This document shows, piece after piece, positions 14,001 through 47,356 of a stretch of DNA of 55,997 nucleotides. The DNA lies in assembly GCA_000934665.2 (NCBI GenBank), contig JYFJ02002489.1, positions 1 to 55,997 of the forward strand, read 5' to 3'. This stretch comes from Catajapyx aquilonaris. Taxonomy: Eukaryota. Both the position numbers and the translations under genes were made by a program. Under the pieces are notes generated by a model. That model was given only the letters and a program-made list of their open reading frames with translations. It was not told the DNA's origin and made no database searches. The first letter of the stretch is position 1, and each line of letters starts with the position of its first letter.

Positions 14001-17000
14001 GTTTTTTTGACTGAGCAGTTCCTTCCCCCTTTGGATGGTAATAACAGAGACTTTTGGGGCCCCCCTTTTTGCTATCGTGTGGAATCAACCCCACTCGCAT
14101 GATTAAAAGAACTGCATGCTACGGGTTTACAAGGTAAAGGTTAACAGTGCCAGTTGCAGCAGAAGTAGAACAATATGGCACTAGAAGTGCAATAAACATG
14201 GCTGGAAAAATCTTGCGGATTTTACTATCCATCCATCGGATTTAAACTGTCAAGCCTGGCCTTGCTGATTACGTAAATGGCACGCGAAAAATAGCCCTTC
14301 AACGCATTCATCACATGTTATTTCATTATCGCCTAAAGCTGTCTCTCAAAACAGGAAATGTAACGTTTAAGGCTAATCACTAATGTCAGCATGAATTAAA
14401 GTGGCATAAAAAAACCGTGTGCAATACCATGTGTCTAACCTTATTTACTGTGCTCCAAAACCCAATAAGAAAGCAATGAGAAGTTTGAGATTTTCCCATC
14501 AGTATGAACTCATGCAATTACCCCTGTGTTCATACGAGCACGCAAAATTCCCTTGTGACCTTGGCAGGACACTCCAGGGGCTAACTTTGTTGCTCGGCCC
14601 GATTGCTATAGTATTATTTATGATGGTCGCCGGTAGAAAAAGATCGAAGTTAGTTGCCCGGGCGAAAAGGACAACAGAGGTACGTGTAGTAATGATGATC
14701 ACTATCACCTGGAAACCTTTCCAACCGACTGGCGATCGAACACATATTTGCCAAATAGTACGATTACCCTGTTGCATTATTCAAATAGCACTCTCCTGTC
14801 GTCGTTACTCGCTCGTTTCACGTTTGCATAGCAGTGCATGGCATTTCTGGTGTTACTTCCTGCAATTATTCTGCTTGGGTTTTTATCTTATTGGAGTCAA
14901 TAATTATTGAGTATTTGTCTTCTGGTCGAATTTATGACACATGTGACTGCACGATATAAAGAGCGTAGTGCGGGTTTTCTAATTGCACACACAACGAGGG
15001 AATGAATGAATGAAGGACGAGAGACAAGTCGATATCTCTTTCATGCAGTTTTAAAGACTGCAATGCACTGCTGTCGTAACTTCTGCAGACTAATTATGCA
15101 GTATAATCAACTTATGTGAGCATGCTTAGTGCTCTGTAGATTATGGCAGTGCTTCAGCCTTACAGTTATGTATTTACGACCCATGATTGCCATTTGCAGG
15201 AGATGGTTTATGTTCGCACAACCCAGCCTCTTGTACGCGAGGTGCTCGGTGGCCGAATGGCGACGGTGTTCGCCTACGGTGCCACGGGTGCTGGCAAGAC
15301 CTTTACTATGTTGGGAACCGCTAGCGAACCTGGGGTCATGGTACGTGCCCTGCAAGACATCTTTCAAGCCTCTTCTAACATCGAGAACGAAGATCTGCAG
15401 GTCAGCATTTTTATAGGGTATTATTTATGGTTGTCGTGAGAGCTCATATTGATACGAGTCTGCGCCTACCTTGGCCTACCTACTTCAGGTGGGCATGTCT
15501 TATATGGAGATTTACAACGAGAATATTCGTGACCTTTTAAATCCGTCGGCGGGTTACTTGGATATCAGGGAGGATGGAAAAGGTCGAAACGTGCACGTTT
15601 CAGGTCTCACAGAGCTGTCTACAACCTCTCCAGAACAGGTGAGTCGTTAGTCAAATGGTGGTACCCTTGATCTCATATTGCTTTTTGTAGGTTATGGAAC
15701 TGCTGCACCGAGGAAATAAGGAGAGGACAGTGGAACCTACAGCAGCCAACAAGACTTCGTCTAGGAGTCACGCTTTGTTGCAGGTCACCGTCAAAAGAGA
15801 TGGCGAAAATGGTTCATTCTGCGGCCGCCTGTACCTGATTGATTTGGCTGGCTCTGAACGAGCATCTGTGACTCAGGTACTGTAGGTCGCAAAATGTCTA
15901 CATGTTCAGCATGTAACCTTATCGCTCTTTACGGCTCAGGAAAGGTTGCTTGTATAGTGCACCTCAACTTCATTGCACCGGGACGCTGTCAAGGGCTTCA
16001 AGGCACATAGATGAATAGCACGAACGTTACATCAGTGTTATGTAGTGCACCATGGCAATGGCTGTATCTCGCACGCACTCTTGCACAATGCTCACTGGAA
16101 GTAAGGCTGTAAATGTTTTGGTCCGTTGTACCTGCAGTATCTTAGCAAGTGTTTTATTTAACACCTTTGGGATGTAGCTCATGGTCACGACAATAATGTT
16201 TTGCAGAACCATGGGAAACGCCTGCAAGAAGGTGCCCATATCAATCGCTCTCTTCTGGCTTTGGGAAACTGCATCAACGCACTGGCCTCATCCTCCAGTC
16301 AAAACATGTCGTATATTAACTTCCGGGACTCCAAGTTGACACGATTGTTAAAAGAAGCCCTTCTTGGTCCATGCCTGACAGTGATGATAGCTCATGTGAG
16401 TCCAGCCAGCGCCCATTTGGCCGAGACCAAAACCACTCTGGCTTATGCTGACCGGGCCAAGAATATTTCTGGAAAAGTACGACGTAGGGCTATGGAAGTG
16501 AGCCATCAAGCATCGCAGAGCCAGTACAAAGACCTGATTGGGGAGCTGAGGGAAGAAATATCCAGGTTGAAAGTGAAAATAGAGGAAGGTCCCGAAGAAG
16601 TACCTGGCAACGGCCACATGGCTCTGAATGAATCTATGTCTTCTATAGACCAGGAAGAGCTTCACCGTATGAGAGAGGACCTCATCTCGCATTTTAGGGA
16701 CCAAATGAGACTTAGGTACCTCACCATGTATATTAATAAACCTAATCAATCGCACGTGCTGGATAAATCGGGGGTTTCCCACAAGTTGGCCGCAATGAAT
16801 TGAAATTTTAGATTTTGTAGGCCACTTGACCATATCAGTACTTTCCCTGCCATCACCGAAGGTCAAGGGGTTTATTTGTACTTCCTTTTCTTCTATCACT
16901 CCAGTCACGCAAGCGGTGACTTTTAAGTTTCCTGAATGCTGGCCATATACGAACGAGTTATCACCCATTTACTACCCCCATTAAATTGATATTTGGTCAG

Positions 17001-19393
17001 GCTGGTTAAAGCCTAGCAGTACCTTAAAGTAATCATTTTCATTAAAAATTAAAACATAATGATCAAAGTGACAGGTGTGAGCAGGTTCTCCTGTTTACCA
17101 TAAGCAGAATACTGTGTAATATTTTATGTTTATTAATGTCTTTAGACGTCGTCTTATGGAGATGGACAGCTACTTGCTTGGTTTGGCCACAGAAAGAGAG
17201 AGACAAGAACTTATCTTGAACGCATGGGAAGCTGAAAAGAGGCGGAGAACATCAGTGTCACGGCGATTTAACAACGGCACAAGCACAGCCAACAAAGGTA
17301 TGTTGATGATTTTTTCTTTTCAGAACTGATTTATTTTGGCATTTGTGTATCAGAGGAAACAGAAGATGAGCCCGAAGAGGTGACTCAGGCTTGGGAAGAA
17401 ATCGCCTTCATTGAGGAGGAACAGGAGAGGCTTGGGACACGAAGAGAAGAAGTTGAGCGTCGTTTGTCATCGTGTAAATCGAGGGCTACTTCACTCGAAG
17501 AAGAACTTCCTCGAAAAATGAGTTCAACTGAGCAGAGAGAAGTTCTGGCCCTACTTTGCCGGGTTCATGAGCTGGAAGTGGACAAGATGGAGGCACAGAG
17601 GCAGACACTCCTGAGGGAACACGAACTCAGGAGGAGAGATCTTTTGCTGTTGAGGTATGACCGTCAAAGGCAACTCTGCGAAGAGATTATCACCAAGCAA
17701 AGGCAACTGCTTCAAGCGGCAGTTCCTCCAGAACTAGAAGATCTCTACCAGCTTTATCAAGAGGAGGCACAGTTTCAGAGGTCTGCACTGGTGTCTAGAG
17801 GATCTTCAAGCGACGTCTTCCGGGTCAGTTTTGTGCATCCTTTTCTTGCTTAAGATATGAAATGTTCCATATAATATGTACAGATTTAAATAATGTTTGA
17901 CCTACATCAGGCACCATCTGTCAGCTCATCCAGAGGGAGTGCATATGGCCAACGTTTGCCAGCCATTTCCAGAGGAAACCAGAGCAGCGCAAAGCCCTCA
18001 TTTAATCGGATGACCATAAGGTGACATCAACTTGCACATAAATAAGTTAAATGGAGTACTACATCATGTCACATAACAATGTGCTGTGTAAAAAGTGGCA
18101 GTTGTACTACCTACTTGTATATACGCATAGTTTCCAAATTAATTCAGACATGTTGTCCAACTTTTATTTATTAAAATTAATTAAGTCGTCAAATATCTAG
18201 TATGACATCTGGACTTTTATGTTCATATTACAATATTACATCTACATATCAGTATTTATTTACTAATAAATTTTAATATGTTCTTTTGGTAGCTCTTCAC
18301 CCGGCAGTGTCCAATTTCCTCCTCTCAGTGGTCTTCCCAGAAGCAGCAAGTACGTGGCCTACACATAATATGAGATTATAAATGGCATTGTTATTAACTT
18401 TGCATGCTCATTTCCTACAGCACGGGAACTAAACTGAGGCCACCAGAATTAGATGATTTACAAGAGGAGGAGGATGCTCTTGGTCTTCCACCAGCAACAG
18501 CCGCTACCAATGGGTAAGTTTACATTACATAATGTATATCGAGCATCATGTACAGTACATATCGAAGTAATTTTTAGATGCGAGCGAAGCACTCATTAAA
18601 CTCATATTTAATTTGTTTGATCTTACGAGCACGGTAGCATGTACTGTACGAGATACCATTAGACCTACATGTTATTAATAATAATTGTGGAGAGAGCAAT
18701 CAAAATTCAAAACCATCGGTCATGGCTCTATGCCCCATATTCTTTCTGAATGCTCATTCCTCAATGATGTCTTGTCTACAACAGTATGCGATTAAGTGAT
18801 CGGAGAGCAGTTAGTGAGGAAGCACTGAACCGTCCTCGCCTGAAAACGGTAAGACTAGACAGTGCACATTACACTTCACAAAGGATATACAATTATTAAT
18901 TTTCTCTTTCATTGCAGACTTTTCAAAACTACAACAGTGGTCACAACTTAGACTCACTAAAGCTATCTGATATTCGTGGAAACACAGGTGCGTCTCGGCT
19001 TTCAAAATTTAATGCCAGCTCGGCTTCAGACATTGAAGACTAGTCAGTTTCATAGAAACCCCTCAACGCATATTATGGCAATTATTTTTGAAAGTGAATG
19101 CAACTGCTGTGCATTACGCATGCTGTCTCAAGCACAGAAGTATAAGGTACGCTTTGTCCAGTGAATGCTCTCTGCCTTGCAAGTTTTTAAAATTTTTTCT
19201 GCAATGCACCTGGGGTCTTGTTGCTATTAATTTTTTGCTGCTATTTTCCCTATGTTCAGTGGCAACTGTGATTACAGCCGCAAGCGCAAAAAGAAAACAG
19301 CACTACCCAGCAACGGGCAAAGGCGTGAGGAAAGCAAGGCCCAAAAGCCCAGACATCAGCAGGATGTTGGGGTTTTCACTTCATCACGATTAA
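5056..19393 (+). CDS. KIF19: Kinesin-8 family motor, KIF19-like (about 844 aa, 15 exons)
   Basis: Exons 5056-5163, 11943-12023, 13406-13555, 15200-15400, 15489-15638, 15691-15876, 16207-16715, 17146-17297, 17354-17823, 17911-18020, 18293-18349, 18421-18513, 18785-18848, 18918-18987, 19260-19393; all GT-AG, frame continuous. Motifs LTVAVRVRP, YVFDVAF, P-loop [67 protein letters not shown]19-type coiled coil [17 protein letters not shown]. The low-complexity C-terminal exons are less certain. Confidence 0.88.
6612..6738. mobile_element. PIF/Harbinger (Tourist-like) MITE in KIF19 intron 1
   Basis: TIR gggccggtttcaccgagct..gtatatgataaaacc / ggttttatcatatac..agctcggtgaaaccggccc; TTA TSD at 6609-6611 and 6739-6741. 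Confidence 0.8.
8954..9430 (-). mobile_element. tRNA-derived SINE with internal minisatellite, in KIF19 intron 1
   Basis: Minus-strand head ggggcatggtggtctagtga...ggggttcaagttcc (A/B boxes, about 9363-9430); body 9030-9270 of about 11-nt GCGAAAACCA-like units with a duplicated block at about 120-nt period; (AAAC/TAAC)n tail; TSD gc(t/c)tccagtgacttt at 8939-8953 and 9431-9445. Confidence 0.8.
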
Positions 19394-19629: not shown

Positions 19630-20331
19630 TTATGCAGGGGTAAAAGCAGGTCCTGCCACCATGTCTTCCCCTCCAGCGTCACTATGGGCCAGGCAGAGTA
19701 TCGGCGCAATCAGACAGGTAGATCTCGACGGACAGCAGGCATCCAGCAGGGTGCAGCAGTTTCCCTGAAATGGAAAAGCCCAAGTACGTTGTCCTCGGCG
19801 ATTCTTCTGTCACAGTCCAAGGAAAATTATATCTTCAGTGTTGAAGTACACGTTTTACTTACACGTCTGTGAGGGCAGCAGTACGTGCCTCCCAGCAACT
19901 TTCCGCAGCATTTACCGAAGCACCTGCTTCTCCCACACCTTACACCACGCCATGGTCTGCCAGGTCTGCCACCACCCTCGCCACTGCCATCCTCGCCACT
20001 GCCACCACCACCACCTCCTTCTCCTTCTTCTCCTCCACCACCACCTCCTCCATGACCCCCTCCTCCATGACCTCCTCCTCCTTGGGGTCCTCCTCCTCCG
20101 CCCCCAAATCCACCACCTCCAGGTACAAACAACCCACCTCGTCTGTCTCGACCGACGTAATCACGGTCTAAGTCATCATCTTCCAGGGCGTCCTCTCCAG
20201 CACTAATACCCTTACAAAAAAAAAGACAATATCTCAATATTAATAAATCAGAGACTGTCGATGGGCTATGTCAGACTTACCAACAGGGTGACTACAAAAA
20301 CCAGGGCTACTAGAACCACCTTCCGCTCCAT
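19630..20331 (-). CDS. Gene A: secreted precursor, signal + acidic propeptide + RDRR + Gly-rich segment + one 12-Cys granulin module (177 aa)
   Basis: Exons 20281-20331 (MERKVVLVALVFVVTLL), 19863-20210 (GISA-GEDALEDDDLDRDYVGRDRR-GGLFVPGGGG...RCGRSRCFGKCCGKLLGGTYCCPHRR), 19630-19764 (GNCCTLLDACCPSRSTCLIAPILC...*). Cys pattern C-C-CC-CC-CC-CC-C-C. TATA on the minus strand at 20371-20378. Confidence 0.85.
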
Positions 20332-22533: not shown

Positions 22534-22822
22534 TTAATCTGCTGAACTTTGGGTTTGGGAGTGTGAATGACACAAAAGTTTCAGGCTGCATATAAAGAGA
22601 ACTTTATTTGTCAAAGGGGTGAATGAATCGCTTTTGAAGCGGCATTGCGAAGGAGTTGATGTCCTCCTCTCTCTTTGACCCTCAGTTAAGCTCTGGAAAA
22701 CAATGTGAGAAAATGTCAAGATTATTGTGTCATACACATATATTCTGGGTGTCACTCATGGAAAGGCTTACAAGGGTAGTTAAGACCACAACCAGTATTG
22801 CCAAAGTAAGTTTAAGACTCAT
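22534..22822 (-). pseudogene. Gene C: degenerate or divergent paralogue of genes D/E/F
   Basis: Exon 22772-22822 (MSLKLTLAILVVVLTTL, gtaag donor) and an exon from 22692 (SLTEGQRERR...) match the D/E/F signal peptides. The rest lacks CC pairs, an acidic tail and a second GT donor. TATA at 22876-22882 and a variant promoter motif at 22902-22914. Confidence 0.6.
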
Positions 22823-24207
22823 TGTGCCTGTGATTCGCCACTCTTGCCACGCTGCCTTGACATGATGCACATCGGTTTTATACGCGTACATGCTGGCAGG
22901 CTAATTAGCGCGTGAAACGACTAATCATTATGAATGGGACGCATTCCTTTGTGCTCAAATATCAGTACCGGTAATTAGCACGAATTATAGCTTTAAACAT
23001 CATGCATAGACAGTAGCATTTTCGAAAATATCTAAGTCAGATATTGCGGTGTTTTGAAATGTGATGCTGATATAGAGTGATAATTGTAATGCTGAATTAC
23101 TGGCGCCAATGAGGTTCATTTTTATAGCTTATACTGTATACTGCAGAGTTGTCATTTGCGGAGCTCCCAAGCAAAAGCATCTAACTCCAAGTTTGTATGC
23201 ATATTAAGCCAGCTCCAATGTGATTAACTTTTCCATAATGTTAAATATGTAAAACTAAGTTTTTTCCTATCTATATGAAACATACACACATACAAGATTG
23301 GTGGAATCAGCATTTTAACACTCTCCATATTATTGTTAAAAAATCATTTATGTGGAAAAAAATGCTTTTTTTCAAGCAAAACCAGCTAACTCCAAATACA
23401 CATTACAGTACAACCAATGAGTAGTAGAAATAATTGTTCCTAGCAACAGGATGGGCTGGAATAATCATGTATCGTACACCCCTAACTTGTAAGATGTAAG
23501 GTCAGATTTCATTACCTCCAGAAAACTTTTCGGCTGGAAAAGGGACAGAAAAGTTTGTTAATACACTGGGTAACTAACTATTGATAAAATTAAAAACTAT
23601 TTTTTGGCTCTTTTCCAGCGGGCAACTTTTCATGTCAGTGGTCCTACTACTCTACTATATCATCATAGCTACTATCATAGCTTTAACGCGTGAGAAAGAT
23701 TTGAAAAAATAATAGAGACGAACAAGATTGATATTGGGGTAAGTCGAATCTAAGCTGATTAATTCTTTTAAAACTCTCCCATCTCATGTTGTCACCCTCC
23801 CCTAGAATATCACCTAAGCAAAGATGGGTCAAGAAAGGAAGAGAGTTAAAAGTGAGTGCAACACTGCAGGAGGGGAAGATGGGTTTTTGACAAGTTCTGC
23901 CGTTTTTCTTTTGTTCAGACATACTTTTATTTCTTTGATTTGTGCGATGGTATTAAAATACTTGTAGGATATTCTGCGCAGTAAAGTTCAGTGTAACAGT
24001 AGGCTACTCATTTGCATTCATTTGGTGGCGAGTATGGGACAATGTATGCATTTGATTTTTCTTATATTCTTAAAGGATTAGTGTGTGAAAGCAAATACGT
24101 AAAATGATATAATTGATGCTAGTATAGTACTTTATTTAATAAAGGCATAAATATATCGCTTTTGACATCGGTTTCAAATCATTAAGTCGCGAAGGGGAAT
24201 CTTCAGC

Positions 24208-24696
24208 TCAGCCGTGATGTCCATGTCCTCCACCACCGCGATGTTCGTCAGAAGTCGCGTCGGCCTTTGCGTCAGCAGCAGCGTCAGCAGAATCGGCGAT
24301 TACATCTCCGTCTTGGTAACTGATGTCGTCGGCGACGTCAAAGGCAGCTGAGGAGTCGGCGGAGGAGTCGGGGTTGTCACCAAAGATGCGCCAGCGGCAG
24401 CATCGTACCCTTCCTCCAATTCGGCAGCAGCGGAACTGGAAAAGTCCAAACGGCATTGGCCGTATTAGTTACATGCATAGTACATTGTATAAGACAGTAG
24501 TGCAAAAATTATGTGCGTGGTACTTACACCTCGAGGACAAAACCGGCAAAATCGTTGGGCTTCAGTTACGGTCTGGAATGCAAAAAAATAGTGAAGAATT
24601 ACAATTTCATTATGTATACTGTCATTGCAGCTCTATATGACTTACAAGGACAGCAAGGGCCACTAGCAGCAGTGCCAAAGTCAGTTTAGGACTCAT
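24208..24696 (-). CDS. Gene D: secreted Arg-rich 6-Cys peptide precursor with acidic C-terminal piece and His/Gly tail (107 aa)
   Basis: Exons 24646-24696 (MSPKLTLALLLVALAVL), 24528-24572 (TVTEA-QRFCRFCPRG), 24208-24435 (FRCCRIGGRVRCCRWRIFG-DNPDSSADSS...DE-HRGGGGHGHHG*). Canonical gtaagt/cag sites; TATA at 24765-24771. Confidence 0.88.
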
Positions 24697-24784
24697 GGTT
24701 ATTCTTGTGCTTGCTCTGTGCTACTCGTCTCGAGACACACTGCCCTGTCAAGTTGCACGTCCAGTTTTATACTCATCTACCAAC

Positions 24785-24797
24785 TAATTAACACGTG
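24785..24797 (-). promoter_or_regulatory. Conserved E-box+TAAT motif (CACGTGTTAATTA) upstream of the gene D TATA box
   Basis: taattaacacgtg on the + strand, about 20 nt from the TATA box; the same motif is at 28912-28924 (gene E) and 32317-32328 (gene F). Confidence 0.6.
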
Positions 24798-25687
24798 GAA
24801 CTCTTCTAATCATTATGGTGTAGCAAATGCTTATATGCATATTAATACCAGCCATTGGCACGAATATTTTGAACGACTTGCTCAACTGGGTAATTTAGCA
24901 GAATTAAGATTGTAGTAAGCTATACTGTATAAACCACGCGCCAGATCTTCATTTTTAGGGATACTACTATGCCAAGCTGATTTTATAGACTTTTCAGAAA
25001 CTCCTCTCCCATCACAGTCACGCAACGACAAAATGTGTGTTCACAAGATCGCTAGAATCAGTCGTATAGGGGAAGTGAGAAGACAATATTTTATAGCGGA
25101 TTATAGTCATTGTTCTCTCGCCTAATGTCTAGGCTCTAGGTTTTCCATTTAAAACACGGGGATATGTGATATATGTTGGCAACACTTGCAGCGTCATACA
25201 AAGTCTAAATAATTTTTCAACAGTTTGTGAAATATTATTCGGACGCAACTATTCGAGTACCGGTACTGTACAGTACATTACATTTTCACGTCTTGTGAGA
25301 CTCCACCGAATATTCTACCACCTTAGCCTTGGTACCCATCCCATGTGTATAGAATGATTAGAATGACAGGTTTTATGTATGGCTCCTCGACACAAAAAGA
25401 GGTGTTAGAGAAACACACGCTCTGAATTATTTTGCGGCAAATTTTTGTTCTAGTTTACACAGGCAATCTAACGGGAATGCTACTTGTAGTGCAGAAAGAG
25501 TGAAAACCACTCAAATGGATAATAAAACGATTATAAGTTAGGAAGCAAGTAGCAGAGACAATTACAATACAGGACTAAATCGTAAAGAAGTAGAATAAAT
25601 ACGGCATAATTTTTAGAGGCACGTAATCCTAATATAGGCCTATACTGTACAAAAAACGAGAGTAGATGTACAGTACGTATATATATA

Positions 25688-27029
25688 TTTATCACGCCTA
25701 CTTAACCCACTCTCCGGGTACTGAGAGACCTGAAATTTTTCACACCTATGCCTTACCTTTCAGTGACCCCAGGAAAAGTCCGAAAACCCTGAATATTTGG
25801 CAACAATACGAGTTATGAACCAATTTCCGTATTTAGAGCACTTTCATGGCCACACTGCAGTGCTATACCAGCAGGGTAGCACTGCAGTGTGGCCATGAAA
25901 GTTGCTAGGGGAGGTTTCTAGACTACAGGGTGTCCCACAAGTCTGAAACCATCATAGGTCATTGTTGTATTGTAGGATTGTATTGTTGGTTTCTAACAAG
26001 TTGTGCCAACTTGCACTTTGTTCACAGTCAGAAAAGGTTGAGCACAGTTAGCAAATTTGGTGAGGAAAGGGAACTATTTCCGGTTGCAGGGAGGTCAAGA
26101 AGATTGTGAATCATGATTCGCAGGTGCCCTGCCTTCAAGTTCATTTCACTGTTCAGGCCAAATTTAAAATGTCGGGAAAGAGGAAGGGGTTGACCCAGGT
26201 TCAACCTTGGTTCAACGTATTGCCCGTGTCATGGCCGATGGTCCAATAGAGGAGGCAAAAGTAATAGCCCAAAACTGGGGTGGAAAAGTTTAGTACAGTG
26301 GTTCCCAACATGTGTGGCGTGCCCCCTTGGGCCTTGAGGGTCGCGCGGTGGCCTGGGTAATTTTTACTTGCAAGAAATTTTATCAAAATTTCACCACGAA
26401 TGTTTTTAAATGTTTCATATGTCTACAATACATTAATCTTCTACCACTGGCTTAGTGCTTCAAATGGGTGGGTGGCTGGAAAGTTTCCGCAAAAGGCACA
26501 TAATTTCATGGAAAACAGTGTGTGGTGATGCAAGTGCCGTGAATCTCGAAGTAGAATATTGGAAGAAGGTGGGAAGCGTTTGTTTGGGGTAAGTTATTCC
26601 AAAGAGAACATTTTCAACTGCAAATGGAACTGCACCCCCTTATTTTAAAGATGTGCTGTATACGCCAGATACAACCGTAGGGTAAAACATACTATTCCAC
26701 AAAAATGCTTCTGTATGGAGTTATTTTGCACCATATTGAGGCAAGGTGCTTACTTTACATCTCCCCATTTTCCTCTATTTCTCACCAGCAAAAAAATCAG
26801 TGACGTCCTTGATCTGAACATAGCTTAAACCTATCCAGTACGGAATTTTTTGGGGGTCCAGTGCGAAGGAATGAGGTCTTTGAGATGTGGGAAATATTTC
26901 AGTGACAGGTGTTTATAAGACAAAGTTTGTTTGTCTGTTTGTCTGTTTGTTTGTTTGTCCATGGTAACGGGTTTTTGTTGGTGAGTATTACGGAAACAGG
27001 GCGTGCGAAGAACGGGCTCCTCTGCTAGT
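25688..27029 (+). mobile_element. Non-autonomous Helitron/Helentron-like element
   Basis: Starts tttatcacgcc and ends gggcgtgcgaagaacgggctcctctgCTAGT (short sub-terminal inverted pair cacgcc/ggcgtg, CTAG end). (GTTT/GTCT)n tract at 26925-26958; internal inverted segments; 26-bp perfect hairpin at 25840-25902. Confidence 0.55.
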
Positions 27030-28314
27030 AGACCATATAAGTTGCGTCCACTAGTCGCCTACACATTCGTACATATCGCTCAAAACGATGGATTTTTCAT
27101 TGAAACCAAATGCAAAATTATCTCCATATTTTAGCGACATGGTAGGATATACATAGAGTTCATTCTATGGTGATATGACAACATTAGGTCTACACACGTA
27201 TTATTTTGCAACAGCAAAGGTTCTTGTTCCTTTACCATCCAGTTCTAGTATTAACTCCAATTTATTACATTTTTGTTTTATGGGATTAAAGCGTCCGGCG
27301 TCTTTACATTAACAGTCCACAATAAAATAGGCTCTATTCCGCCGTTTACATTTTATTCAGGTAGTAGCACTAACTTATCACTATAAATACACCACAAATA
27401 CATTGCCCGCTGAGTTTTAGTTAGCTCATTTTTATACGAAGAATGATTATGCTTAATCGACAATATGAATAATATATTGTGCCATTCATTAGTAACAAGT
27501 GTATTTCAGTGTCTGTCAAATCAATCACGATTTGAGATCACTCCTACTCTCACTTTTAATGATATACAGTATTTTCTTCGAATTTAGTTAGGCACTGTAA
27601 TAGAAAACGTACTCTGTATGGACCAAAAAGTTTCAGTCGCCGATGGTGAAAAATCCTGCACAAGTTCATTGCTGGAGATGAGTCCATTAGAATACGGAGA
27701 ATAAGATATAGTACGTGTATTATGCTTCCTCCTCCAGAAATATTTTTGGCAGCCGAGAGAGCCTTATATGGGGCTATGGAGGTAATATATTAAAAGACGA
27801 GATAATAGCTTGGCTGTGAGAGTGCTCGAAGTAGGTCCCCAAAAATTGGTTAATATTACACTGTTCGAAAATATTTCAGAATCGGCATAATTAGTTTGTG
27901 CGCAGTTGTAGCGCATGATATGCGTCATGTGATTATATTGAATTTTGAATAATTTCTTAAAAAATGACGGCGAATCCCCAAGCAGTTGTTGCATTTTTGG
28001 AATTCCGTATAATATAATTGTAGAAAGTTGCTTCTGCTCCAACATCTGTGGAATGTGAAGTAGTGAAAAGGCAAGGTGAGGCATATTTTTCCAGGTGTAC
28101 GTGTAGTAATAAAGCTTCAAAAGAGCGTCCTCAGCCATGTCTTGGTAATGCCTCCCTATTCTATGGCAATTGAAAACTGACTCCAGTATTATGCCTGGTA
28201 TTCCCATTCCCAAAACAACTATGGCGATAACTAGGAATGCTAAAAAGTTAAATCAGAATATAATTTTAATTCAGCAATATATTTATTCCCAATCAAGTTT
28301 TATACAGCAGGTGA

Positions 28315-28832
28315 TTATTCGGCTGCGGCTGCTGCTTCATCATGGTGGTGATGATGGTGTCCTCTGCGATGTCCTCCTCCACGACGTCCATCATCAGCGA
28401 CGGCTTCGTCAGATGCAGCAGCGGAATCGGCAGGTGCAGATTCGTCGAAGAAGTCGTCATCTACGGCGTCGGATGAATCAGCGGAGGAATCGCTTTCATC
28501 ATTACGGCCTGGGCGGCAGCAGCTAACTCGGCCCCGTCTGCGGCAGCAAACAAGCTGCAACATGAGACAAAAAGGAGCACATTAGTAAAGAATTTTGTTG
28601 GTTCTTCATACGGTACATGAATGCAGCACACTTACGGGACGACAGCATCGGCGTCCGCCACCACCACGACATGCCCGGCATCCCCTCTGAGCTTCAGTCA
28701 GGCTCTACAAACAATAAATTTTTAAAAATGCAAATTGATTGACATCACTATGACACGATGTAAATTTCACGTTATACTTACGACGACCACCAGGGCCACC
28801 ACCAACAGTGCCAAAGTGAGTTTGCAATTCAT
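28315..28832 (-). CDS. Gene E: secreted Arg-rich 8-Cys peptide precursor with acidic piece and poly-His tail (119 aa)
   Basis: Exons 28782-28832 (MNCKLTLALLVVALVVV), 28636-28704 (SLTEA-QRGCRACRGGGGRRCCRP), 28315-28554 (LVCCRRRGRVSCCRPGR-NDESDSSADSS...DDG-RRGGGHRRGHHHHHHDEAAAAAE*). TATA at 28890-28896. Confidence 0.88.
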
Positions 28833-29732
28833 GATGCTCGAGTTGTGTTAGTACTCTTGATACAGATCGATGTGAAGCAGTGCTGTTAGTTATATACCTG
28901 CTCCAGCCACATAATTAACACGTGAATAACTTTGGACATTAGCTGTGTGGCACGTCCTTCTATGCCTAAAAATCGAGCAATTAGCACGGGCAGTAGTAAT
29001 AGAGCACGCAATACTTAAGAGTTTTCCTTGTCTTTGCAGTATATGGTCAGTCCTGATGGCTTGGTCTGCAATTTTTTCCAAGGGTATATCAAAGCAAAAC
29101 TTAAATAAAATACATTGTCAACTTGTTATTTCTCACACCATGTTCTCGGTGCAAAAGTTGCATTTGAAAGTGTGTAAGTATTATAATAAACCTTTGAAAA
29201 CTACGGTACTGTACGTGCTTCATCTACGATGAATGACGGCCTAAAGTACGAGTACAACCTTTAAAAACCAGTCGCAAAATAAAACATCTGTAATTTAGTG
29301 ATAAAATGTTTTAAAAAATTGCAAGCTTTATGTTAAGCAGATTCAAATATGTAAATCAGCACAGTATTTAAAAATAATAGGCAAATCCAGTAATTATTAA
29401 TGAGTCCCTTTCATCAGGCTATTTCTTCTCCCTTTCCTCTCAATTTCATGACTTATCAATATCGGTGAGTTTCCAATAATTATAATCAGAATTCCGTAAG
29501 TAATGAACAATATTTATTATGATATATTTATTAATTTGTTGCTGCAGGGAGGATACACCCCATATGCATACAGTCCATAAAGTGATAAGCATTTCACTCT
29601 TTTTACTAAATGAAAATTAATTACATTATGGAAATGTTTATGTTGCTTACATGCACTAAACATGATTGCTATTGAATTGCTACATACTGAAAAGCAGCCA
29701 ATCTTGCAGTTCCATATTCAAATTTTTCTTTG

Positions 29733-30136
29733 CAGGGTGTTCCCAAATTCGTCTGCCACAATGATACGGGTGGTAAGGAGTGCATATGGAAGAAGCATGG
29801 CATGGGTCCGAAAGGCCGGCGACGACGTCGGCGTCGACGTCGACGATGTACTACATCCTGACAAGATAGTATGTATACCACCGTACATGCCTGCATTGGT
29901 GGTTCCTGGAGTCAGGCGGTTAAGCAATGGTCTGGGTGCGCGAGAGCCTAACCCCGGCAACCAGCAATGCAGGCATGTACGGCGGTATCCATACTTGTCA
30001 GGATGTACATCGTCGATGTCAAAGGTCGACATCTCCAAAACGGATCGTCGCGTCGCCTGCCTTTCGGACCCATGCCATGCTTCTTCCATAAGCACCCCCT
30101 ACCACCCTTTTGGCATACGAATTTGGGAACACCATG
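29733..30136. mobile_element. Tc1/mariner-type MITE with long imperfect TIRs (copy 1)
   Basis: Ends cagggtgttcccaaattcgt / acgaatttgggaacaccatg followed by TA; nearly the whole element folds back; a related copy starts at 46963. Confidence 0.8.
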
Positions 30137-30395
30137 TATATAGGGCGTCATCTAGCATCTATAAAAAAAAGACAATGACGCCGCATTGACCAAGACAGTC
30201 CAGGGGTGCGAAGGATGAGAAGGATCACAAACCTTCCATTTTCCAGAATAAAACAGGAACAGTTACAATTAATAGTTATTAATAATCATGTAAGTAACCG
30301 GATATTTATTATTTTATGTAGGTTCTGGAATATATTTGCCCCTATATTTATTACCTAATGACACCAGCACATTACTTGAGGTTGGCTCCAATATA

Positions 30396-31454
30396 CAGTT
30401 GAATCCGGATATAACAGCCGCGGCTGTAACAGATATTCGGTTATAACAGACCCGAACGCTGGCCCAGGCCCTATGTATTTTTACTCATGATATACCGTAA
30501 CACTCATTTTCACCCCATCTCGAGTATAACAGACCATTTCCTGGCCCCTCAGTGGGAAAATAATATGCTGCTTTTGATTACTCGTCTTCCTTTCCCACGA
30601 GAGGAAAGCACGTCATAATGGAGATGTGGTGATTTTCCCATCTGTCACTGATCTAACACTAGCCGAAATGGCCTTTCTGGTATATTTGCACAGACGGCAG
30701 AAGAAAATAGGGTCATTCCCACGTGCCACAAAATCTCGATCTTGAACCACGTTTCTGACTGGCAAAATCAGGATGTGATCAGGATCGTTTGGTGACTGTT
30801 TCCACGGGCCAGGTACTTTTCGTGATTTTCGGTGGAGTGGTCTGTAACCACGCCCACCCGCCTGGCGAAAAAATGACTCTCGCTTCGGCTCCCGGACAAA
30901 GGCACGGGTGACTCTACGATAGGCCTGGCTGTAATAGCATGGAGGCATGCTATCTACGTTATTACACAGGTCCTGGCTGCCCGCAGAGCGAGGGGGCAGA
31001 CACGTGGGCAGACGGGGCCAAGCAGGGAGCCGCCATGTTGCCCGGTCCGGAGGGGGGAGTGACGTCAGGATCGCGACTCATAAGGTGGCAGTCAACTTCT
31101 ACAAGCTGGCTGCCACAGTCACCTTTGTAAACGCGTTCGGGTGGAGGAAGGGCATGTGGGAACACCCCAATCACGACTTTCGGGGGTAAGGATCATGATC
31201 CCTGTGGCACGTGGGAATGACCCTAATGACGGATTTTTTTGGTCCTTTCTAAGTTATGGGTGAGCTAATTTTGCCTGTTTGTGTATATAGTATCATTAAT
31301 CAACATGCAGTAGCGGTGTGCATTATAAGCATAATTATGAAAGCTGAAAATTGTGGTTTTTGTTGCAAAAGTGGGGATTTGGCTATAGCAGACATCGGTT
31401 ATAACATACTGATTTTCTCGGTCCCTTGAAGTCTGTTATATCCGGATTCAACTG
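30396..31454. mobile_element. TA-flanked pogo/Tigger-like non-autonomous DNA transposon
   Basis: TIR cagttgaatccggatataacag / ctgttatatccggattcaactg; TA on both sides; sub-terminal cggttataaca repeats. Confidence 0.82.
30709..31224. mobile_element. Nested non-autonomous DNA element inside the pogo-like element
   Basis: 22-bp perfect TIR agggtcattcccacgtgccaca / tgtggcacgtgggaatgaccct; AAT on both flanks (30706-30708 and 31225-31227). Confidence 0.75.
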
Positions 31455-31796
31455 TATTATAGTGCATTTGTTGTTTTATTTTTTGCGCTTCTTTTCTCCC
31501 ATGTAATCCACAATTATTTTGGTACCAAAAATGATGAATCCTTCTTAAATAAAGTCTTACTGTCATAAAATGTTACTACAATATGAGCCAGAAACAAAAA
31601 CTTTTCAAAAACTGCAGAAACTCTGGAACATTGTATTGCCATGCTTTGTAAGGAAATTAAAACGCATTGTTTGAAGCTGACAACTAATGGAAACATCGCA
31701 CAATCGCCTATTTGTGAGAAATACAAGGTGTTTGTCTCTATAAGATTTTATTATACAGTGGTCATGCACACACTGATATCTCCTGATATCAGATGA

Positions 31797-32232
31797 TTAA
31801 TCAACTAAATCGTCGTGGTGTCCTCCGTGATGGTCTGAAGTATCGGCCGCAATTTCATCGGAACCGTCGTACTCATTGGCGTCAAAGACGACAGGACCAG
31901 AATCTGCAGAGTCGTTGCCATCCAATAAAAAGCCACGGCAGCAATAAAAATGTCCCCGAAGGATGCAGCACCGCGACTAAATAGAAGAGGAAATTATTAA
32001 AGTTGTACCACTTTGTACTGAATATAATTATTTTCGATGTATAGTAGCAAGAAAGAGTACACTTACGAAGAATGGGCAACGTATCGGGCAGCCAAAAGGA
32101 TGAGCTTCAGTCAGACTCTAAAAAAACAACATTAAATGAAGCCCATATCTTTGCACAAAAAAGGCTCCTTTTACCTACCAGGACCGTAAGTGCCACCAGC
32201 AGCACTCCCAAAGTCACTTTGAAATTCATCAT
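31797..32232 (-). CDS. Gene F: secreted 6-Cys cationic/hydrophobic peptide precursor with acidic piece and His tail (94 aa)
   Basis: Exons 32179-32232 (MMNFKVTLGVLLVALTVL), 32067-32117 (SLTEA-HPFGCPIRCPFF), 31797-31976 (SRCCILRGHFYCCRGFLL-DGNDSADSGPVVFDANEYDGSDEIAADTSDHHGGHHDDLVD*). TATA at 32296-32301. Confidence 0.87.
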
Positions 32233-32951
32233 GGTGGTCTATGTCAATGCTCACTCGACTTGCACAGATCCTTGGGAAGAACCACTGTGTCACACTTTAT
32301 ACCCTATCCATCCGCCTATTAACACGTGTAGTTATGAATATTAAAACGTGAAATTATGAGGCAAGACCTTCCGAGGTTAGAACTATTACCAAAGACAATG
32401 ATTGAAGTTTCATATAGGCTTATCTTAGTACTAAATGACGGCACTGGCTAACTCAGCATTAATTTTTAATCGCGTCTGTGACAAAATGTTTCCTCAATAT
32501 ACTGGTATATTGAGAAAATTATACATTATATCCAACAATTATAGAGTTTTCTTCTTACCATTGCCGCTTACTTTGTTACCATTGTTACTTCAGTTAGTCA
32601 AGGTGGCGTATACCTGGCACACTGTATTTTCGCTGTTTCCACATGCAAACGCTGATGGCATCGTCACGATGGGGTAGCATCTCATCGCAGTGCCCAGTAG
32701 TGGTCCACAATTAGTTGAAACATACAGTAGTTTATAAAATCTGAAGCCTGAGGCCATGTCCTGTATCCATACTATATCATGAACGCTCTACCACAATGTT
32801 GCGTGTAACATGTATATATGTATTTTATAGTAGACTCTACAATAATATGATGCCAATAAGTTTTATTAGTACATGAAAGTTTATATCGAAAGCAGTGCTT
32901 TATTTATTGCATAATATGGATCAGGATAAGTGCCATATAATGTGTTACAAT

Positions 32952-34623: not shown

Positions 34624-35114
34624 ATGCATCTGTACTTGATTTTCTTGGGCGTCATTTTGACCATTTCCTGTCAAGTTGTAAGTTAACAAAAAAGTGCACA
34701 TATTACAACACAACTTGTAGGGTACTACTAAACTTCTTTTTTAAATTTAGCGAGCAGAAGTGAAATGTTCCGACGAATACACATGCGAGACCGGGGATAA
34801 ATGCTGCCCTCACAAGAAAGGTTTTGGTTGCTGTCCTCTTATTGACGTATGTGTCATATGCTGATTTTTTCACAAACAAATGACATTAACTGGAAATCTC
34901 ATTCACAATGTAGGGTATCTGTTGCAATGACGGTGTCCACTGCTGCCCTCAAGGAACAGAGTGTGACCTCACGGAACATCAATGTGTTAACAAAATTGCC
35001 CGTGGATTCAATCACGTTCCACTAACTTCATGCAAAGGCGCCTCCTGGATTGGAACCACACACCATCACGGTCACCACGGTCACCACGGTCACCACGGAT
35101 CCTGGCATCACTAA
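34624..35114 (+). CDS. Gene H: secreted single-granulin protein with His-rich tail (116 aa)
   Basis: Exons 34624-34677 (MHLYLIFLGVILTISCQV), 34751-34846 (RAEVKCSDEYTCETGDKCCPHKKGFGCCPLID), 34914-35114 (GICCNDGVHCCPQGTECDLTEHQC...HHHGHHGHHGHHGSWHH*). An upstream exon (ATG 34518, donor 34537, acceptor 34609) could add 11 aa in frame. Confidence 0.9.
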
Positions 35115-37124
35115 CTAATTTTTTACACTCATATTATAGTACTTCGTGCATCATGTAATAATATAGTATTATTATGTGACAAAAATGAAATAAACAAAAA
35201 CATATTGTTAACTGTACATATACACGAGTTGCTCATGTGTTCATTTAAAATTTTCCTTCAAGATGTTGATACTGTTGATGCAAGATGTATATTGAAGAGG
35301 TCAAGAGTCAAATAGACAAAATATGAACTCAATGCTAAAGCATCGCTTTTGACCGACTGAGAAGGTTTCGATGTCATTGGTATTAGCATAACCCCGGTTG
35401 TAGTGAGAAAAATTGAAAACTTACGGTTATTTTCAATACTGTACAGTACATTGAAAAATAATTTGCCATCACTACACTGTAGTTTGGTCTTGATCACATG
35501 GTTTTCAGAGTTTCCCAGAAATTTTACGTGATGAAGTTAAAAGCAATTTTTATTGTATAGCTGATCGTACTCGTACATGACTGTATACAGTACAGTAGGT
35601 ATAATTTGTAGTATCTTATAATTATAATATATTAGTCATAATCTGGTCATAATTCTCATAAATCATGGCTGTACACGCATCCTGGCACCTCCAAATAAAA
35701 CAACTAATAAAATAATTTACCTGCACATTGTGAGTGCAAAACATTTTGTATACAGTTCACTTGGCTTTGTTACAGTCTGTTACAGTACTACTGTATACGT
35801 AGAAATATTCCTGGCTTAGGCGAGATATCCTTTAATAAATTACTTGACATCTTAATTCAACGTTGCTTAATTTATTAGTTAATTTGTTATTTGGTCCCCG
35901 AAGCCTCTTTACTGGGATGATATTCTGCAACTACACAATGCATAAAATATCCTGCTGCAAGGTATGCGCCCCTCCGCACTTTAAAAGCTTTTACGGCATT
36001 TTATTAGCTAGCTACGTTCCCATAAAGTACGGTACCCTCTGACTAATGCTAATTATTAGCCATGAAGCTACGAAGACAAAAAATAATAAGGCAATATTAC
36101 AATAATTATGTTCCGTATCCTCTTCTCCGGAAGAAAGCATGATTATTGGTGTTAGATCTCCGAATGTATAGCGGATGATAAATGACAGACAGCTCTTCGA
36201 AGTATCTTGGTAATTTACAGTAGCTGTCAGATTTTGGTTGCGATTATATTACAATCAAGGATGAATAGATATCGATGATAGTGCAAATCTGAGAAGTGCA
36301 AATCATGCTGGAAACACCCAGTTCAATCGTGAAGTCTCACTGTTACGTAATTGGGTATAGGTGATAGGACACCTTCACAGGACCTCACCTTACATGACCC
36401 TGTTACACTCTATGCTGTATAGCAGAATATAGACATGATGACAGGTGAAGAAATATGAGCTTTCAGAGATTCTGGCATCAAAATGTTTTACAGAATGAGG
36501 CATTACGTTAACAAAATTACATTACTACTGTATTTACTGCTTGTCTAAATTATGGCAATGCAATGGGCGTCTGATTATGTTTATAAAGAGGCGACTTCTT
36601 CGAGGTCATTGCATGTCGCTCTCACATTATCACGTCATGATGACTATACAGTATACAATACGCTTCAAATATTATTAATGATTTTTCAAGTGCGTGGCAG
36701 TATACCCAGTTGACATACCAAATCAAACTGCTTGGTAAGAGGTAATCACAAGTGTCGTAATGGCAAGAAGAAAGAGACCTGCTATTGGAAGATGCTCAAA
36801 CAGAATAAACCCCAAACTATTGTGTGCTTTGATATTTTCCCATCTCAATGCACCACTATAGATATGTTACGGCCAGCGAGTATTGCACATTAATGCAATG
36901 TACTAATCTGGTACTAATACATTCACAACATTTCTTCATCCCATTAACACGTGGCCCGCATTTATATACGTGTGTTTGTCAACATGCTGCCAATATTGTT
37001 ACACGTGCTCATCGGCAAACTTATCTGCACATGCAATATAATGATGGGCAGCAATAATATGCGTGATGTATAAAAGAGACAAGAGTACAATGAGCACAAT
37101 GCGTCTCAAGGGTAGAGAAGCAAG

Positions 37125-37591
37125 ATGATCCGCCCATTTTTTCTCGTCCTTCTGCTGGCAGCTGTTTACTTGGTCGTGAGTATCTTCGTCAATCGGCAAT
37201 TACCGAACCATACATCAAAACATATTCTATTACGCAGACTGTAAATGGAAAGATACGTTGCTCGGCTAAGCACAGCTGTGACGTTGGTCAAACCTGTTGC
37301 AGACAACGTGGCAACCGATTTGGCTGCTGCCCTGTGCCAAACGTGAGCTGCAATTTGATTTCTTTTTATGTCACGCCATCTTAGAATGTTCTGCATGTCT
37401 ATATTAATGGTACGACAATTTAGGCCGTCTGCTGCGAAAATGGAGACCACTGCTGCCCCAGCGGACGATTTTGCGACATTGGGAGATGGGCCTGTCCGAG
37501 AATGAAGGCCGGAGGAAGAGCTGATGAAGATAGTAGGGGCGGCTTATTAGGCTTAGGCCTATTGAATTTGCTTGACGCAAATGAGGAATGA
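37125..37591 (+). CDS. Gene I: secreted single-granulin protein (107 aa)
   Basis: TATA at about 37069; exons 37125-37175 (MIRPFFLVLLLAAVYLV), 37238-37342 (TVNGKIRCSAKHSCDVGQTCCRQRGNRFGCCPVPN), 37424-37591 (AVCCENGDHCCPSGRFCDIGRWAC...DANEE*); AATAAA at about 37614. Confidence 0.9.
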
Positions 37592-38141: not shown

Positions 38142-38690
38142 ATGAGGTTCCTTTTTGTCCTGATGCTGCTTTTATCTGTTGTGGTAAGTGACGTTTATAT
38201 GGTTACGACATTTCCAAGTATTTTTCCTTATGCGTTTCATGCTAATGTTTTACGGGTCCCGGATGAGCTGCAATCTTAAAATAATGTATTAGGAAGATTG
38301 CTGCTGTGCACGAAAATATACGCTATCATTCAGGGTCGCATTGGTTGTGACTCATGTCACATACTCCTTACTGTACTTCCTTCTCCTCAGGCTATTGCCA
38401 TGAGCGCCAAGCGTTGTCCAGGATCCAACGTCCAATGTCCGAATAAGGAGACCTGCTGCAGGGGTGGATCAGGAGCCGTTTTCAAATGCTGCGGATTCAA
38501 CAATGTAACACACAATCGCTTCTCATACAAATGATGCGTTTTATTAATCCATGTATAATTTCTACAGGGCATTTGCTGTTCTGACAGACGCCACTGCTGC
38601 CCTCGTGGGCACAGGTGTGACATTGTCAACCGTCGATGTATCAAGGGTAGAAAGGGATCAGGGGAAATTGCTCAATGGAAGAGCTTCTAA
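38142..38690 (+). CDS. Gene J: secreted cationic single-granulin protein (92 aa)
   Basis: Exons 38142-38183 (MRFLFVLMLLLSVV), 38391-38504 (AIAMSAKRCPGSNVQCPNKETCCRGGSGAVFKCCGFNN), 38568-38690 (GICCSDRRHCCPRGHRCDIVNRRCIKGRKGSGEIAQWKSF*). Confidence 0.9.
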
Positions 38691-41839: not shown

Positions 41840-42187
41840 ATGAAGGCTGTGGTAAGTATTGCCTTGGTTTGTTTCTAGAAGTCACCAAGTTCCATTGATT
41901 AGGCTATTAACTTACGCTATTATTTCATATCTGTTTAGTTCGTAGCTCTTTTTGTACTGGCACTGGTGGCACTGGCTGTAGCCAACCCCCGCCGCGGTTA
42001 TGGCTATGGCCACGGCGGATATGGTCATGGTGGTTGGGGTCACGGTGGCTATGGTCATGGCGGATATGGCGGATATGGCCACGGGGGATATGGCGGATAT
42101 GGCCACGGGGGGTACGGCCATGGGTATGGTCATGGATACGGTGGACACGGCTATGGAGGGTATGGTCATGGACATCATTACGGTTAA
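41840..42187 (+). CDS. Gene L: secreted Gly/Tyr/His-rich peptide (86 aa)
   Basis: TATA at 41751; exons 41840-41851 (MKAV) and 41939-42187 (FVALFVLALVALAVA-NPRRGYGYGHGGYGHGGWGHGG...GHHYG*); probable 3'-UTR intron from 42192; AATAAA at 42438. Confidence 0.9.
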
Positions 42188-45197: not shown

Positions 45198-45333
45198 GGT
45201 TACTCACTCAATGAGAGAATTATTCCGAAACATACTTTTGTAGCCTACTACACGTTTGGGTTTGCACTTTTTCAGAGTGCACCTGCTAGGGTTATCAGGC
45301 CGTTTGGGATAAGTAATGCATGTAAGACACATA

Positions 45334-46485: not shown

Positions 46486-46962
46486 ATATTGTAATTCGAC
46501 TCATGTAATCAAAAATTTTGTATAGGTTTTAAACCACCGGAATTTGGGCACCTTTGTCATGTATCTCCTTTGAATGTGCAGTGTGGAGGTAGTTTTTACA
46601 TTTTTTGTTCCAGATCAAGGTCTCGGTAATATTACATTGCAATATGGGGTATGTCATACGTAGTCATGTAGATGTACGATTCTCTCGTATTTGACATTTT
46701 ATTATTGATGCATTCCCATTTTGATATGTAGTGCAATTTCTACGAAAATCCGAGTTAAAATGTACTGGCATACTCATACATACATAATACACAATATTTT
46801 TATAGCGTTCACGATGCCTTCTATTCCCATAGTATCACTAAAATTTAGGTAAAGTCATTACTTACCTTTTTATCCATACATATGCTCAGATGGGCAGAAT
46901 GTCATGACATGAAAACATTGCGGAATGTTTTATTGCTTAATATATTAATTCTTGGCAATATA

Positions 46963-47356
46963 CAGGGTGTTCTCGAATTCGTCTGCCAAAATGATGTGGG
47001 TGGTAGGGGGAGGGTATGGAAGAATCATGGCATGGGCCCTAAAGGCCGACGACGACATTGACGTCGACAATGTCTATCCTGACAATTATGGGTACCTCCA
47101 TGCATGGTTGCATTGCTGGTTGCCGGGATCAGGCACTCCCACTACCAAGCCATTTCTCAACCGCCTGATTCTGGCAACCAGCAAAGCAGGAATGCACGGG
47201 GGTATCCATAATTGTCAGGATAGACATAGTCGATGTCAAAGGTCGACATCTCCAAAAACATATCGTCACCGGCCTGTCGGGCCCATGCCATCCTTTACCA
47301 TACGCACCTCCCTACCACACATATCATTTTGGCAGACGAATTCGGGAACGCTCTTC
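46963..47356. mobile_element. Tc1/mariner-type MITE (copy 2, same family as 29733-30136)
   Basis: TA-cagggtgttctcgaattcgtctgccaaaatgat... / ...atcattttggcagacgaattcgggaac; shares tcgatgtcaaaggtcgacatctccaaaa with copy 1; right tip degenerate. Confidence 0.8.

Follow-up and report, generated by a model that had tools for sequence, protein, structure and literature searches.

A family of predicted secreted Arg/Cys-rich peptides, probably granulin-derived, inside a granulin gene cluster of Catajapyx aquilonaris

The precursors of tachyplesin and gomesin share a simple layout, in which a signal peptide is followed by a cationic peptide and an anionic extension, and a dibasic or Gly-Lys-Arg processing signal is a feature of both. 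In the mytilin precursors of mussels, the anionic extension is the most divergent part and has been suggested to assist folding and to keep the mature peptide neutralised up to its release (PMC7168163). The granulin module, in turn, is encoded by an N-type exon and, beyond a phase-0 intron, a C-type exon that opens two residues before a CC pair (Palfree et al., PMC4527844). Half-granulins such as zebrafish paragranulin and truncated granulins fold autonomously into a mini-granulin—stacked β-hairpins held by the disulfides Cys I–III, II–V, and IV–VI (PMC7463432)—and the conotoxins MiXXVIIA, H-Vc7.2, and TxVIIB adopt this fold as well (PMC11035057). Here, we analysed a 55,997-nucleotide stretch of Catajapyx aquilonaris DNA (contig JYFJ02002489.1; hereafter, the window), of about 41% G+C, in which three genes (D, E, and F) probably encode a lineage-restricted family of secreted, granulin-derived Arg/Cys-rich peptides. 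They sit within a tandem array of six granulin genes of the canonical single-module type (A, B, G, H, I, and J).

Structure and divergence of the three precursor genes

Six-frame translation, strand-specific reading, and coordinate-based splicing recovered all three precursors at positions 24208–32232 on the minus strand (Table 1), confirming the locus as it had been described from the letters of the window. D, E, and F have the same build, with three exons, two introns, and an intact frame from start to stop. All six introns are in phase 0, span 61–92 nt, and combine a GTAAGT or GTAGGT donor with a pyrimidine-rich AG acceptor. In the alignment, exon 2 of E exceeds that of D by eight codons at the 3′ end. 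Each gene further possesses a TATA element 64–75 nt upstream of its ATG, a CACGTG box (E-box) 92–101 nt upstream of the ATG and embedded in the exact 11-mer CACGTGTTAAT, and a poly(A) signal 27–67 nt downstream of the stop. On the strength of their sequence, D, E, and F are real, intact, and transcription-ready paralogous genes for what are predicted to be small secreted prepropeptides.

The predicted products fall into three parts. Secretion was read by inspection: exon 1 is hydrophobic and 17–18 codons long, and the signal closes with TVTEA in D and with SLTEA in E and F, T-E-A providing small residues at −3 and −1. Behind it lies a cationic, Cys-rich head. That of D comprises 29 residues (9 Arg, 6 Cys, zero acidic residues; net charge +9), and its Arg residues occur together with aromatic and aliphatic ones—a combination typical of β-hairpin antimicrobials. 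The head of E comprises 35 residues, or 36 when counted as far as the first acidic one (12 Arg, 8 Cys; net +12), and that of F 30 residues (4 Arg, 6 Cys; net +4), with isoelectric points of 9.0–11.5 across the three. The sequence then switches to an acidic tail of 56 residues in D (14 acidic; net −12), 61 in E (18 acidic in total, 15 of them ahead of the His-rich end; net −14), and 41 in F (13 acidic; net −13), so that the whole F protein carries a net charge of −9. All tails open on the conserved motif D-S-(S)-A-D-S and terminate in a Gly/His-rich patch, which in E contains six consecutive, natural His residues. The positions of the Cys residues in exon 3 are invariant among the three genes. 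These values reproduce much of the original prediction: the shared LTEA/VTEA signal end was recovered, the head lengths and the Arg and Cys counts matched a recount from the spliced models, and the (D)SADS motif announced for the abrupt switch follows the boundary in all three genes. The 14 acidic residues given for the D tail were likewise confirmed, and the 15 given for E correspond to the portion before the His patch.

At one mismatch or less, the promoter block CACGTGTTAAT has six matches in the window compared with 1.19 expected, a number reached in none of 100 shuffles. Four copies are exact, and three of these lie upstream of D, E, and F, where an alignment of the upstream regions recovers the block as common to the three genes, with an altered form in a fourth copy termed C′ (see below). 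The block was not found in the same orientation upstream of the six granulin genes of the cluster. About 180 nt upstream of granulin I lies the fourth exact copy, which is on the minus strand and has no D/E/F-like reading frame behind it; it could stem from a copy since lost or be a regulatory element that is shared.

A DNA profile built from promoter and exon 1 matches only D, E, F, and C′ in the window (E-values of 1e-42 to 1e-46). In BLAST comparisons, DNA similarity among D, E, and F is confined to exon 1 (75–81% over 48–65 nt), except that E and F are also alike where exon 2 begins. A lenient global nucleotide identity among the paralogues was discarded, as shuffled sequences gave the same value of ~75%. 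Codon analysis of the whole coding sequences yielded, for the D/E/F pairs, a saturated synonymous divergence (dS) of 1.1–1.7, a nonsynonymous divergence (dN) of 0.33–0.52, and a dN/dS ratio of about 0.2–0.4; 29 of the 60 residues identical between D and E are encoded by different codons. The three regions have diverged to different degrees. The signal is the least changed (dN about 0.2; dS 0.43–0.75) and the head the most (dN 0.49–1.0; dS 1.5, undefined for D–E), and the tail has changed less than the head (dN 0.31–0.48; dS 1.6–1.9, undefined for E–F). The combination of saturated dS and low dN/dS argues that the genes are old and under constraint.

This constraint bears on the notion that D, E, and F might be unexpressed relics, that is, decaying granulin duplicates with open frames due to chance. 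The collections searched yielded no similar annotated or assembled protein, and a clearly decayed member does adjoin the three genes: C′, whose promoter and exon 1 match the family profile (E 9.6e-46), has an upstream motif altered to CACGCGCTAAT, an AATAAA inside its exon 2 reading frame, and no exon 3 that could be found. C′ is a decayed fourth member of the family and probably a pseudogene. In D, E, and F, however, start, four splice sites, frame, stop, TATA element, upstream motif, and poly(A) signal are kept in all three cases, dN/dS is well under 1 at saturated dS, and the Cys positions of exon 3 do not vary. The retention of frames, Cys pairs, splice sites, and the promoter block across so long a divergence is a strong argument against relics, an explanation that we find scarcely credible.

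Precursor design and candidate function

The layout foreseen for these precursors—signal, cationic Cys-rich piece, and anionic C-terminal piece—is present in D, E, and F, as it is in mussel mytilins (PMC7168163). The likeness to precursors of the mytilin/myticin type extends to a cationic, disulfide-rich mature peptide of ~30 residues and a sharp shift in charge towards the anionic extension (PMC7168163). However, there is no similarity in sequence or Cys pattern, mytilins being CS-αβ peptides with eight spaced Cys, and D, E, and F differ from the precursors of mytilin, tachyplesin, and gomesin in that they have no dibasic or Gly-Lys-Arg processing signal, a conserved tail, and a His-rich tail end.

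Our leading reading, to which we assign a probability of about 0.45, is that D, E, and F are host-defence peptides. A conserved signal combined with a fast-evolving head is a pattern of defence and toxin peptide families. Under this reading, the signal peptide would be removed after the conserved TEA, exposing a head of 29–36 residues that is rich in Arg and contains six or eight Cys. The head would most likely fold as a disulfide-laced stack of β-hairpins of the mini-granulin (half-granulin) type, followed by a disordered, Asp/Ser-rich tail with its Gly/His-rich patch at the end. The most likely role would be that of a stored, membrane-active peptide, its acidic tail holding the polycationic head in solution and preventing harm from it within the secretory pathway or a granule. 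The His patch may bind metal, and a non-dibasic protease would take off the tail at the conserved boundary, immediately ahead of D-S-S-A-D-S. In the alignment, an Asn lies within three residues of this boundary in all three genes; hence, and speculatively, an Asn/Asp-specific protease of acidic compartments, such as legumain, is possible. A fuller proposal would have granulin genes giving rise to a new host-defence class of polycationic mini-granulins with self-neutralised precursors, in which a His-tagged acidic pro-piece guides storage (perhaps with metal, in acidic granules) before its removal by a non-dibasic, possibly Asn/Asp-specific protease. This we put forward tentatively and regard as rather doubtful.

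Several results speak against a host-defence role. Neither a dibasic nor a Gly-Lys-Arg site is present where the cationic head meets the acidic tail in any of the three genes—D and F have no basic residue there, and E has a single Arg. The G or GR amidation signal of the original prediction is therefore weakly founded, and cleavage and amidation alike are assumptions. Neutralisation of the head by the acidic piece, also proposed at the outset, agrees with the near balance of charges in D (+9/−12) and E (+12/−14) but not with F (+4/−13); since the F tail far exceeds its head in charge, simple neutralisation fails for some members. Moreover, the tail is conserved beyond the head, as seen from the regional dN values, which suggests a role for the tail beyond that of neutralising charge. 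A role in calcium or metal binding, or in cross-linking, would likewise be in keeping with the tail's Asp-Ser-Ser-like motif and His patch.

To these points adds the failure to find relatives, as searches of protein collections, the ESM Atlas, JGI metagenome contigs, and PDB sequences connected D, E, and F neither to any known antimicrobial family nor to any other protein. Exon 3 of D had no match in a word-indexed search of 5.8 billion proteins, the ESM Atlas returned no usable match, and none of 595 pattern matches in JGI metagenome contigs was confirmed. Five peptide motifs were found in none of the 8.4 million papers searched in full text, supplementary tables excepted. Among the titles and abstract openings listed for granulins together with antimicrobial peptides, granulins appear in invertebrate immunity, as do toxins of the mini-granulin type, and none describes a cationic family that derives from granulin and bears an acidic tail. 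A profile of exon 3 from the three genes gave a single match among 1.84 billion representative proteins (E 1.7e-04); it was to an unrelated repeat protein and was rejected. The 34 PDB matches were weak (E of at least 0.15), and the top two alignments, which were inspected, proved to be engineered His-tags. The copepod peptide TjRcys1 (PMC12842719) is unrelated, and PMC13001179 contributed nothing on precursors.

The features of boundary and tail also lend themselves to a different interpretation, in which the proteins are not cleaved and act whole, as bipolar secreted structural, adhesive, or mineral/metal-binding proteins of the cuticle, shell, cement, or jaw type. Their Cys residues would form cross-links, calcium would be bound by the Asp/Ser-rich D-S-S-A-D-S tail, perhaps in phosphorylated form, and the His patch would serve in metal binding or cross-linking. 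A boundary that has no canonical processing site, a tail constrained more strongly than the head, the conserved Asp-Ser-Ser-like motif, the Gly/His-rich end, and the net charge of −9 of the whole F protein are all in line with this idea, as is the presence in the window of two genes for secreted Gly/Tyr/His-rich repeat peptides (41840–42187 and 54410–54622). Yet the heads are short and hypervariable, with 9–12 Arg in 29–36 residues, and thus more effector-like than matrix-like; neither Pfam nor the large protein searches produced a match to a cuticle, shell-matrix, or cement family; and the neighbouring genes are granulins, which are soluble regulators. We therefore consider an uncleaved structural protein unlikely.

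Relationship to the granulin cluster

All nine genes—D, E, F, and the six granulins—have three exons and two phase-0 introns, an exon 3 that opens with two residues followed by CC, and a signal exon of 14–20 codons. The exon layout of the six granulins is the N-type/C-type split described previously (PMC4527844), and each encodes 12–13 Cys. Five of their six C-half exons match the Pfam Granulin family (PF00396) above the curated cut-off (1.8e-09 to 2.9e-06), and the N-half exons of G and I give weak matches under it (0.011 and 0.032). Exon 3 of gene A has no Pfam Granulin match; A is called a granulin because of its 12-Cys spacing and exon layout. D, E, and F thus resemble the local granulins in exon number, intron phases, length of the signal exon, and the xxCC start of exon 3, and some of the granulins also carry acidic or His-rich extensions (B, for example, has an acidic tail). 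In contrast, D, E, and F have 6–8 Cys and no Pfam match, compared with 12–13 Cys and Pfam Granulin matches among their neighbours, and their exon 2 ends 2–3 residues past a Cys or CC, not four past the second CC.

The Cys spacing provides a second line of comparison. It reads 2-5-0-7-0 in D and 3-5-0-7-0 in F, and the N-halves of the local granulins read 5-5-0-8-0 (5-5-0-7-0 in H), with 4–6 residues in the first loop. We built a profile from the six neighbouring granulin modules and compared scores against 2000 plain and 2000 CC-preserving shuffles. F scored 11.5 bits, aligned to C2-CC-CC of the N-half, a score reached by 1/2000 plain and 6/2000 CC-preserving shuffles. With their six Cys in the order C-C-CC-CC and second and third loops of 5 and 7 residues, D and F partly resemble paragranulin and other mini-granulins (PMC7463432, PMC11035057, PMC4527844). 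They deviate from these in a first loop of only 2–3 residues and in an intron between Cys2 and the first CC, which is absent from the N-type exons here and from those described in PMC4527844; E adds an extra CC pair, for a total of eight Cys. In addition, the D/E/F heads are extreme in their Arg content, and a long, acidic, His-ended tail takes the place of the C-half. The half-granulin-like C-C-CC-CC framework that had been predicted for these peptides therefore stands in part: six granulins with a common exon layout flank the genes, and F outscores 1994 of 2000 CC-preserving shuffles, but an intron lies inside the supposed half-granulin.

A granulin origin has a number of observations to contend with. 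D (4.1 bits) and E (−0.2 bits) did not score significantly against the local profile, being equalled by 133/2000 and 280/2000 plain and by 348/2000 and 650/2000 CC-preserving shuffles, respectively. Alignment of D/E/F with the granulin exon 3 sets by hhalign placed CC-x7-CC on CC-x5-CC, again without significance (E 0.075, probability 0.75%). At E-values up to 1, Pfam Granulin matched neither exon 3 of D, E, or F nor exon 2 of E (unspliced exon translations), and the promoter and exon-1 DNA profile matched no granulin gene in the window. In D and F, intron 2 interrupts the loop that runs from Cys2 to the first CC, a position without an intron in the local granulins. Beyond these points, no DNA or profile similarity between D/E/F and the local granulins was detected outside the Cys pairs, and none of the three has the 12-Cys granulin motif C-C-CC-CC-CC-CC-C-C, with six Cys in D and F and eight in E.

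The sequence support for a granulin origin is thus modest, and two routes to it can be envisaged. By the first, the head would be a paragranulin-like N-half module with an intron newly gained in the second loop and the C-type exon lost, which fits the loop lengths and the profile match of F. By the second, both exons of a full module would have been trimmed, such that exon 2 keeps Cys 1–2 (plus one CC in E) and exon 3 retains the C-half's first two CC pairs and has a wider loop. This route fits the intron positions. Taking both routes together, we hold granulin ancestry to be reasonably likely, and the family most likely arose when a single-module granulin gene inside the cluster was duplicated in tandem and trimmed.

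As to the fold, AlphaFold2 was run on the alignment of exon 3 of D, E, and F (unspliced sequence). The model places strands at residues 2–6 and 9–13, forming a hairpin over CC-x7-CC, with a mean predicted local distance difference test score (pLDDT) of 75 for the first ten residues, and leaves the tail at low confidence and without secondary structure. It agrees weakly with the mini-granulin proposal; its overall mean pLDDT, for exon 3 only, is a low 55, which counts against firm conclusions on the fold.

A granulin origin would also accommodate a role in signalling, with D, E, and F as growth-factor- or cytokine-like mini-granulins comparable to paragranulin or released granulin peptides and the tail as a pro-region. 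Their location in the granulin cluster, the common gene layout, the half-granulin Cys framework, and the profile match of F would all suit such a role, and truncated forms of granulin can show activity in cell proliferation (PMC7463432). However, receptor ligands do not usually combine a charge of +9 to +12 with a near absence of further polar residues. As the fastest-evolving part (dN up to 1.0), the head is not suggestive of a conserved receptor interface, and natural paragranulin itself is without known function (PMC7463432). All in all, a signalling peptide appears fairly improbable.

The mini-granulin scaffold further brings to mind toxin-like or reproductive peptides: venom or gland peptides resembling some cone-snail toxins, or gamete polycations. 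The conserved signal and promoter combined with a hypervariable Cys-rich head make what we take to be a toxin-like pattern, and the composition of the E head presumably resembles that of protamine. The fold itself does occur in the three conotoxins mentioned above (PMC11035057). Against this, searches of Pfam, large protein collections, and the PDB revealed no similarity to a toxin family, the window contains no indication of a venom apparatus, and a signal peptide speaks against the nuclear role of a protamine. We deem this option very improbable and retain host defence as the preferred role.

The cluster is an unusually dense granulin expansion, with nine small secreted-peptide genes in about 19 kb and a separate signal exon for each granulin. 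Granulin A (19863–20210, minus strand) has a Gly/His/acidic N-extension of 88 residues and net charge −8 before its 12-Cys module of +7, a charge balance of opposite polarity to that of D, E, and F. Granulin H (34914–35114, plus strand) possesses a natural His-rich tail with 12 His as well as a 13th Cys, and the word-indexed search returned no short protein similar to its exon 3.

Surrounding window and implications

Table 1 Features of the D/E/F locus, the granulin cluster, and the rest of the window.
Feature	Position	Strand	Remarks
D exon 1	24646..24696	−	17 codons, bulk of signal peptide; ATG at 24696, GTAAGT donor after 24646
D exon 2	24528..24572	−	15 codons: signal end TVTEA, then first two Cys; AG acceptor, GTAAGT donor, phase 0
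D exon 3	24208..24435	−	xxCC-x7-CC hairpin (predicted), 56-residue acidic tail with His/Gly-rich end, stop
D promoter motif CACGTGTTAAT	24787..24797	−	TATAAAA box at 24765–24771
D poly(A) signal	24135..24140	−	67 nt past stop
E exon 1	28782..28832	−	17 codons
E exon 2	28636..28704	−	23 codons: SLTEA, then C-x2-C-x7-CC
E exon 3	28315..28554	−	xxCC-x7-CC, 61-residue acidic tail with natural six-His run, stop
E promoter motif CACGTGTTAAT	28914..28924	−	TATATAA box at 28890–28896
E poly(A) signal	28282–28287	−	
F exon 1	32179..32232	−	18 codons
F exon 2	32067..32117	−	17 codons: SLTEA, then C-x3-C
F exon 3	31797..31976	−	xxCC-x7-CC, 41-residue acidic tail, stop
F promoter motif CACGTGTTAAT	32318..32328	−	TATAAAG variant element at about 32295–32301
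F poly(A) signal	31747–31752	−	
C′ (probable pseudogene)	22534..22822	−	exon 1 22772–22822; exon 2 frame 22534–22692, starts SLTEG, 3 Cys, no CC pairs
Fourth exact CACGTGTTAAT	36943–36953	−	upstream of granulin I
Granulin A	20331–19630	−	3 exons, phase-0 introns
Granulin B	21040–20565	−	3 exons, phase-0 introns; Pfam PF00396 on exon 3 at 1.5e-06
Granulin G	33930–32952	−	3 exons, phase-0 introns
Granulin H	34624–35114	+	3 exons, phase-0 introns
Granulin I	37125–37591	+	3 exons, phase-0 introns
Granulin J	38142–38690	+	3 exons, phase-0 introns
Foldback element, E–F spacer	29733–30136		MITE-like; nested inverted repeats, 57-nt arms 93% complementary
1.06-kb element, E–F spacer	30393–31457		perfect 25-nt terminal inverted repeats
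Reading frame	46949–47422		resembles the E–F foldback element by eye
Gly/Tyr/His-rich repeat peptide genes	41840–42187, 54410–54622	+	secreted; GYGHGG-type and GYGGHRGG-type; no Pfam match
Ionotropic-receptor-like gene	43592–45203	−	Pfam Lig_chan 7e-04 (below curated cut-off)
Ionotropic-receptor-like gene	48058–50329	−	Pfam Lig_chan 2.7e-08 (above curated cut-off)
ELP6-like exon	965–1696	+	Pfam 1.3e-30
KIF19-like kinesin gene	15140–17853	+	
Single N	4886		

The spacer between E and F holds two repeat elements, one of them resembling a miniature inverted-repeat transposable element (MITE), and a similar frame recurs further along the window (Table 1). The two Gly/Tyr/His-rich repeat peptides resemble in composition both Gly-rich defence peptides and structural His/Gly-rich proteins. 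Two tandem genes with large exons look like ionotropic receptors, relatives of glutamate receptors. An exon of the KIF19-like kinesin gene has its best matches, at 55% identity, in decapod crustaceans, and in a FastTree phylogeny of 121 rows it forms an end branch of 1.35 in no supported clade. Since this kinesin is at most 55% identical to any match, the DNA, probably that of an arthropod-like protostome, appears to come from a lineage without close sequenced relatives.

If D, E, and F were uncleaved structural proteins after all, they would make an unusual bipolar Cys/Asp/His family of biomaterial interest. As host-defence peptides, they would add a new disulfide scaffold—a mini-granulin with 9–12 Arg—to the few β-hairpin antimicrobials. 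The three genes provide three natural variants of very different charge and hydrophobicity for structure-activity work, and their conserved tail, acidic and ending in His, lends itself naturally to testing how polycationic peptides stay harmless and are sorted. Within the searches made, theirs would be the first case in which an antimicrobial family is traced back to the granulin fold and found beside its parent genes. The locus would then show the origin of a defence-peptide family, in which the granulin module of a growth factor and lysosomal protein was cut down to a half-size, charged scaffold, with its parents still alongside.

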